From the NCBI RefSeq assembly GCF_053078305.1, contig NZ_CP166879.1: a stretch of 64,000 bases of DNA. One strand, given 5' to 3'. The notes beneath the pieces are model-generated. The model did not search any database, had not been told where the DNA came from, and was given only the letters and a program-made list of their open reading frames with translations. Positions 63,928 through 64,000 of this stretch are shown here, one piece after another (the first letter of the stretch is position 1; every line of letters begins with the position of its first letter). A program made the position numbers and the translations under genes.

Positions 63928-63990
63928 ATGGCTAAAGTTCTGGTGCTTTATTATTCCATGTACGGACATATTGAAACCATGAAGCATTAA
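63928..63990 (+). pseudogene. wrbA: wrbA 5' fragment: first 18 codons match WrbA, then the sequence diverges and hits a stop ([20 protein letters not shown]-stop)
   Basis: Translation read directly; intact WrbA continues ...[12 protein letters not shown] from memory; the window ends 10 nt later. Confidence 0.55.
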
Positions 63991-64000
63991 AAACACAGAA

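Follow-up and report, generated by a model that had tools for sequence, protein, structure and literature searches.

Probable integrase-distal junction of a lambdoid prophage within wrbA at the end of a 64-kb Escherichia coli sequence

Introduction

The DNA analysed here, a stretch of 64,000 nucleotides from contig NZ_CP166879.1 (hereafter the window), breaks off shortly after the start of wrbA, and the reading frame of this gene is closed by a stop codon before the edge is reached. The question is thus raised of what interrupted wrbA and what should be expected to the right of the window. In O157, Stx prophages have four main sites. The wrbA gene is among these, being occupied in 61.6% of 346 strains, and the Stx2a prophages of Sakai and EDL933 reside there (PMC8309913). 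The Stx1a phages of O26:H11 clade C2 use wrbA as well, and long-tailed Stx1a phages of O26:H11 are reported at this site (PMC10042803). The original prediction, which was made from the sequence alone, had named wrbA as a target of lambdoid prophages including the Stx-converting ones in some pathogenic E. coli, and had proposed that the sequence adjoining the break may be a prophage end. From the comparisons described below, we estimate with a probability of about 0.93 that a lambdoid prophage lies in wrbA with its integrase-distal junction at the end of the window, where 23 nt of it are visible.

An occupied wrbA is a classical typing marker for Shiga-toxin-producing E. coli (STEC), and a junction of this type marks the strain of origin as lysogenic for a phage family in which stx1a or stx2a is often present. 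The observation is therefore of use when the strain is annotated and when its risk is assessed, as a sign of a possible Stx-phage lysogen. Descriptions and annotations of the attachment site, of the integrase family and of wrbA disruption date back to the O157:H7 Sakai and EDL933 genomes; because the junction in the window is the annotated junction base for base, it represents a known feature in a new host strain, and the sole strain-specific point is a host backbone unlike the usual STEC lineages in the complete-genome collection.

The wrbA reading frame at the end of the window

The genes ahead of the junction are arranged in the order rutD-E-F-G (+), ymdF (-) and the interrupted wrbA (+). 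The last intact host gene is ymdF (63382-63555, - strand), an open reading frame annotated as ymdF in the relatives, whose protein product is unchanged across most of the compared loci. The wrbA frame starts at 63928 on the + strand, and its 18 N-terminal codons, when translated, are the same as those of intact WrbA from ETEC6335 (L003), the closest complete genome, confirming both the match originally claimed and the WrbA N-terminus on which that claim was based. The frame then reads AAGCATTAA..., as had been described, giving two foreign codons (K-H) followed by TAA. The chimeric truncated frame thus extends from 63928 to 63990 (+) and consists of 18 WrbA residues, K-H derived from the phage arm, and the stop codon at 63988-63990. 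This leaves a stub of 20 codons and destroys the WrbA product.

The host-derived 5' fragment of wrbA is shorter than the protein match. On sequence alignment, positions 63928-63977 (+), which comprise codons 1-16 and the first two bases of codon 17 and end with the crossover core (see below), showed no differences from the intact wrbA of five genomes (L003, L008, L010, L012 and L017). Codon 17 is ACC in the window instead of the host ACG, a synonymous change, and the first non-host base is therefore placed at 63978. Codon 18, ATG, is identified by this alignment as phage sequence that coincides with wrbA. The break after codon 18 that had been proposed accordingly holds at the level of protein, but at the level of DNA the phage sequence starts four bases earlier. 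Likewise, the roughly 19 nt of divergent sequence, AAGCATTAAAAACACAGAA at 63982-64000, are present as quoted, but the foreign DNA in the window amounts to at least 23 nt (63978-64000).

In the approximately 5,200 complete E. coli genomes whose wrbA is intact, the alignment to the window ends at 63981, and such genomes cover 36 of the 55 bases of a 55-mer spanning the junction. The 30-mer at 63971-64000 is present in one copy in the window, and was found in none of 100 shuffles. A scan of 63550-64000 for promoter and terminator consensus sequences gave nothing relevant to the junction above the level expected from shuffled sequences.

Attachment-site anatomy and the crossover core

The junction was aligned with empty attB (from ETEC6335), with attP (from Stx2 converting phage I) and with two occupied junctions. 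The attB sequence is GGACATATTGAAACGATGGCACGC, that of attP is AGACATGTTGAAACCATGAAGCAT, and that of the window is GGACATATTGAAACCATGAAGCAT. The attB and attP sequences share an imperfect similarity of 17 bp, corresponding to 63965-63981 (+) of the window and reading GACAT[A/G]TTGAAAC[G/C]ATG with two mismatches, and these two mismatches flank a 7-bp core, TTGAAAC, at 63971-63977 (+). The window carries the host A at 63970, on the left side of the core, and the phage C at 63978, on its right side. Strand exchange is thereby confined to TTGAAAC at 63971-63977, and the phage DNA starts at 63978. Beyond the point corresponding to 64000, the arm reads TTACCGAAGATCGTCCAAGA... in all three references aligned with the window. 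Alignment with empty wrbA and with prophage att sites, a check of the kind suggested together with the original prediction, thus gave host sequence on the left of the core and attP on its right.

The same core coincides with the "attachment site" feature of the free phage record AP004402.1 (L004 2507-2513) and with the "attachment site" in AP000422.1 (555-561, and a 6-bp version at 63258-63263). The integrase-proximal junction of VT2-Sakai is AGACATGTTGAAACGATGGCACGC, with phage G and host G at the two mismatches, as predicted for an exchange within TTGAAAC; the mismatches are partitioned reciprocally between this junction and that of the window.

These features are best accounted for if a tyrosine integrase of the 933W/VT2-Sakai (Sp5) type, composed of an arm-binding domain and a catalytic domain, recombined its attP with the chromosomal site in wrbA codons 13-18. 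Strand exchange took place in the common core TTGAAAC (63971-63977), leaving native host DNA on the left of the core and phage DNA from 63978. The 933W/Sp5 type resembles phage lambda in the use of a tyrosine recombinase with an arm-binding N-terminal domain, in the short common core and in the reciprocal hybrid junctions. It differs in the core, here the 7-bp TTGAAAC within a coding sequence, and in the target, which for lambda is the gal-bio intergenic attB and here is wrbA; the target gene is disrupted by the present integration.

Identity with known wrbA prophages and phages

Over its final 101 bases the window matches 18 deposited wrbA prophage records, VT2-Sakai included, at 100% identity (E = 1e-44), and a 19th at 99%. 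Besides VT2-Sakai, the matching records are named Stx1a-converting, Stx2a-converting or "PPwrbA", the last being stx-less by record name. The phage-derived arm at 63978-64000 (+), forming the integrase-distal end of the element, is the same as that of VT2-Sakai, of the prophage of O145 95-3192 and of the attP of Stx2 converting phage I. Free-phage genomes, including Stx2 converting phage I, Stx1 converting phage and O104:H4 phages, match the window from 63965 or 63966 to 64000, at annotated attachment sites or at genome ends. The proposal that the adjoining sequence is a prophage end is therefore borne out by an attP arm of a known phage and by deposited prophage junctions identical at every position.

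Three groups of known elements are instructive in this respect. VT2-Sakai (Sp5) of O157:H7 Sakai, in AP000422.1, is annotated with an "attachment site of Sakai-VT2 prophage" and with a wrbA "divided by the insertion of prophage"; it agrees with the window in the order of rutG (there "pyrP"), ymdF and wrbA 5' part, but its host backbone is different, with an identity of about 98.4% across 1.8 kb and numerous SNPs in rutG. Stx2 converting phage I (AP004402.1; Traversvirus tv933W) represents the free attP form, of which core and arm are the same as window 63971-64000, with the integrase gene located directly across attP from the window-matching arm, and with G where the window has the host A (63970). 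The third group, the wrbA prophages of non-O157 STEC, shares the junction of the window and includes the Stx2a phage of O104:H4, O145, O43 RM10042 (Stx1a) and OkiPb01678 (Stx2a), as well as the LC6454xx and LC744xxx records (Stx1a, Stx2a and "PPwrbA"), whose junctions are identical to that of the window. In the non-O157 STEC prophages a full-length element of 46-64 kb stands behind the junction, and both the cargo (Stx1a, Stx2a, or none by record name) and the host backbone vary. Since cargo and tail type vary at wrbA, the junction is no predictor of phage type.

Orientation of the integrase and the probable element beyond the window

In attP, the integrase gene ends just to the left of the core in the orientation of the window, and after integration the integrase is therefore located at the far junction, beside the 3' part of wrbA. 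From this arrangement the end of the window is assigned as the integrase-distal junction (attR by the lambda convention), which in the coordinates of Sakai is named the "wrbA right junction" (PMC8309913, appendix). The int and xis genes of the reference genomes are located about 46-64 kb from the integrase-distal junction, beside the 3' part of wrbA. The reference integrase next to attP gave Pfam matches to Arm-DNA-bind_2 (E = 1.2e-25) and Phage_integrase (E = 8.7e-17), by which it is classified as a tyrosine recombinase of the lambda-Int type.

The junction 55-mer was detected in 214 of 5,426 complete E. coli genomes, and the 36-mer at 63965-64000 in 215, the median genome having it in one place. 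The hosts are mainly O157:H7, O104:H4, O145, O111, other STEC and bovine isolates. This collection is strongly skewed to STEC, and base rates of stx carriage derived from it are therefore unreliable. When the representative genomes of GTDB were searched for exact copies of the 55-nt junction, none was found. The reference integrase-proximal 46-mer was detected in 168 genomes, and among the matches listed it was located under both "wrbA" and "tyrosine-type recombinase/integrase" in all but the last two rows. The distance between the two junctions was measured in the 21 genomes that were among the matches listed for both, giving 46.3 kb in one and about 60-64 kb in 17. Three strains deviated: the junctions are 92 kb apart in 2018-166 (NZ_CP075632.1); they are 115 kb apart in strain 112 (NZ_CP028683.1), where each junction query has two matches in the record; and in 2014C-3307 (NZ_CP027368.1) they are separated by about 660 kb and inverted. 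The first two spacings suggest tandem or nested prophages, and the third suggests a large inversion.

Two genomes with the identical junction, O43 RM10042 (stx1a) and OkiPb01678 (stx2a), were sampled for the element itself, and in both the prophage is complete and short-tailed, with a capsid of the N4-gp56 type and a giant LPD38-domain gene beside the junction. From these spacings and sampled prophages, it is likely that a full-length prophage continues past the edge of the window. By analogy with these genomes, an element of about 46-64 kb would follow, with terminal accessory genes nearest to the window, then tail, head and lysis genes, then Q (together with stx, should it be carried), the region for immunity and replication, and at the far end xis-int beside the 3' part of wrbA. 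With the integrase at the far junction, the first few kb to the right should consist of late-end or accessory phage genes and not of int. Carriage of Stx by this prophage is plausible; it may be Stx1a-converting, Stx2a-converting or stx-negative, each of which is compatible with the 23 visible bases.

A different outcome beyond the edge would be a prophage remnant, in which the site-specific junction was formed as above and the element was later largely deleted or rearranged, leaving neither a functional prophage nor stx. The element is visible for 23 nt only, and the window includes neither an integrase nor any phage gene, second junction or stx gene. Some wrbA loci have been reshaped: the exact integrase-proximal 46-mer is retained in only 168 of about 215 junction-bearing genomes, the junctions of 2014C-3307 are displaced as noted, and IS-mediated deletions have been described for wrbA-type Stx1a phages (PMC10042803). 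We consider a remnant unlikely, since all 21 paired genomes among the matches listed retain at least 46 kb between the junctions, the visible phage arm is free of mutations when compared with active phages, and the host flank is the same as that of empty-site relatives, suggesting a recent event.

Host flank and chromosomal backbone

The segment 61700-63977 showed no SNP when compared with ETEC6335 (L003) and A16 (L008), both with intact wrbA, and differs at many sites from the flanks of O157 Sakai and O145. A host flank of 2.3 kb without SNP relative to empty-site relatives argues for site-specific integration in this lineage, and its identity with those relatives suggests that the insertion was recent. 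The same comparison bears on the possibility that an STEC donor supplied the prophage together with flanking chromosome through homologous recombination. The backbone here is a mosaic, as seen in the PutA allele common to L012, of which the surroundings are only 99.2% identical, and import would be in keeping with such a history; the 2.3 kb on the left of the core, however, follow the empty-site relatives and not O157 Sakai or O145, so that import with a foreign flank finds no support in the SNP comparison and is regarded as very improbable.

The highest identity to complete genomes is 99.3% for window 44-64 kb and 99.7% for window 1-25 kb. The nearest complete genomes come from several porcine isolates (one of them ETEC) and from otter, river-water and frog isolates, and wrbA is intact in all of those inspected. 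Contigs carrying the exact RutG, PutA or RutA alleles are 98.8-99.4% identical to the window, with wrbA intact except in ES5 (L011). None of the closest backbone relatives inspected has wrbA occupied by a prophage of the present type. On these comparisons, the host backbone is placed outside the usual STEC lineages of the complete-genome collection. A more specific reading, in which an intact Stx-converting phage resides in a non-classical-STEC E. coli and the window derives from a recently lysogenised, unsampled lineage of STEC or STEC/ETEC-hybrid type, is put forward only tentatively.

Several other features of the backbone were recorded. The mosaic is evident around putA (52928-56890), where only 18 contigs of a large collection have the exact PutA allele of 1320 aa; one of these, L012, shows only 99.2% identity with the window across 19 kb and has a different RutA allele. 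At about 44990-45007 the window lacks approximately 380 bp relative to the phoH-efeB interval of ETEC6335 (L003 4008-4391), the megablast alignment being split there with a short overlap. An Rfam match to Ysr251 (RF02855; 189 bits, E = 2.5e-51) lies at 43728-43921 (+), antisense to the 3' end of phoH (open reading frame 43723-44787, - strand). At the other end of the window, a variable island of about 2200-31000, placed by collinearity with L022 (NZ_CP149565.1 3041587-3086000), adjoins tRNA-Ser(GGA) (2194-2281) and ycdU. It includes a cluster of ACP, ketoacyl-synthase, FabZ, SDR, ABC-transporter and lipoprotein-sorting genes, a two-partner-secretion exoprotein of about 3.8 kb accompanied by a ShlB/FhaC transporter, and an operon for chaperone-usher fimbriae. 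Coverage of window 1-25000 reaches 80% or more in only 378 of 5,426 complete E. coli genomes.

Other disruptions of wrbA and the chimeric WrbA protein

Insertion of another mobile element into wrbA, either an IS or an unrelated phage, has a precedent in ES5 (L011, CP133871.1). In this genome wrbA is broken at 11979/11980, corresponding to window 63949/63950 between codons 7 and 8; its homology to the window ends ...CTGGTGCTTT at 63949, beyond which lie phage genes of the HNH, tape-measure and Dit-like kinds. Because this break differs in both position and phage, at least two distinct integration modules target wrbA. Both the breakpoint and the arm of the window differ from those of ES5 and match exactly the attP of the 933W/Sp5 type, by which an ES5-type insertion was rejected. 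An IS was rejected as well, since the arm matches phage attP and not an IS end and, unlike a multicopy IS, has a median of one location per genome and a single copy in the window; an origin from any such element is highly improbable. A wrbA pseudogene formed by a point mutation or small indel, with wrbA resuming past the edge, has in its favour nothing other than the short distance between the break and the end of the window, and can practically be dismissed, because the 19 nt at 63982-64000 show no alignment to wrbA codons 19 onward, no wrbA sequence follows the lesion within the window, and the 36-mer at 63965-64000 is confined to prophage-junction genomes and never found in the approximately 5,200 genomes with intact wrbA.

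A further observation concerns the opposite end of prophages of the 933W/Sp5 type, namely the integrase-proximal junction. In O104:H4 C227-11 (L025 1605-2183), and also in VT2-Sakai (L021 545-590), the phage supplies an in-frame ATG, which overlaps the annotated stop codon of the integrase gene (ATGA). The resulting chimeric WrbA is 192 aa in length, with its first 11 residues, MINHILRHVET, replacing the native 17, and is annotated in RefSeq as a normal wrbA CDS. In flavodoxin-like proteins, the N-terminal strand and loop, which are lost in the chimeric WrbA, contribute to the binding of FMN. From this role of the lost N-terminus, the chimeric WrbA is predicted to be probably inactive.
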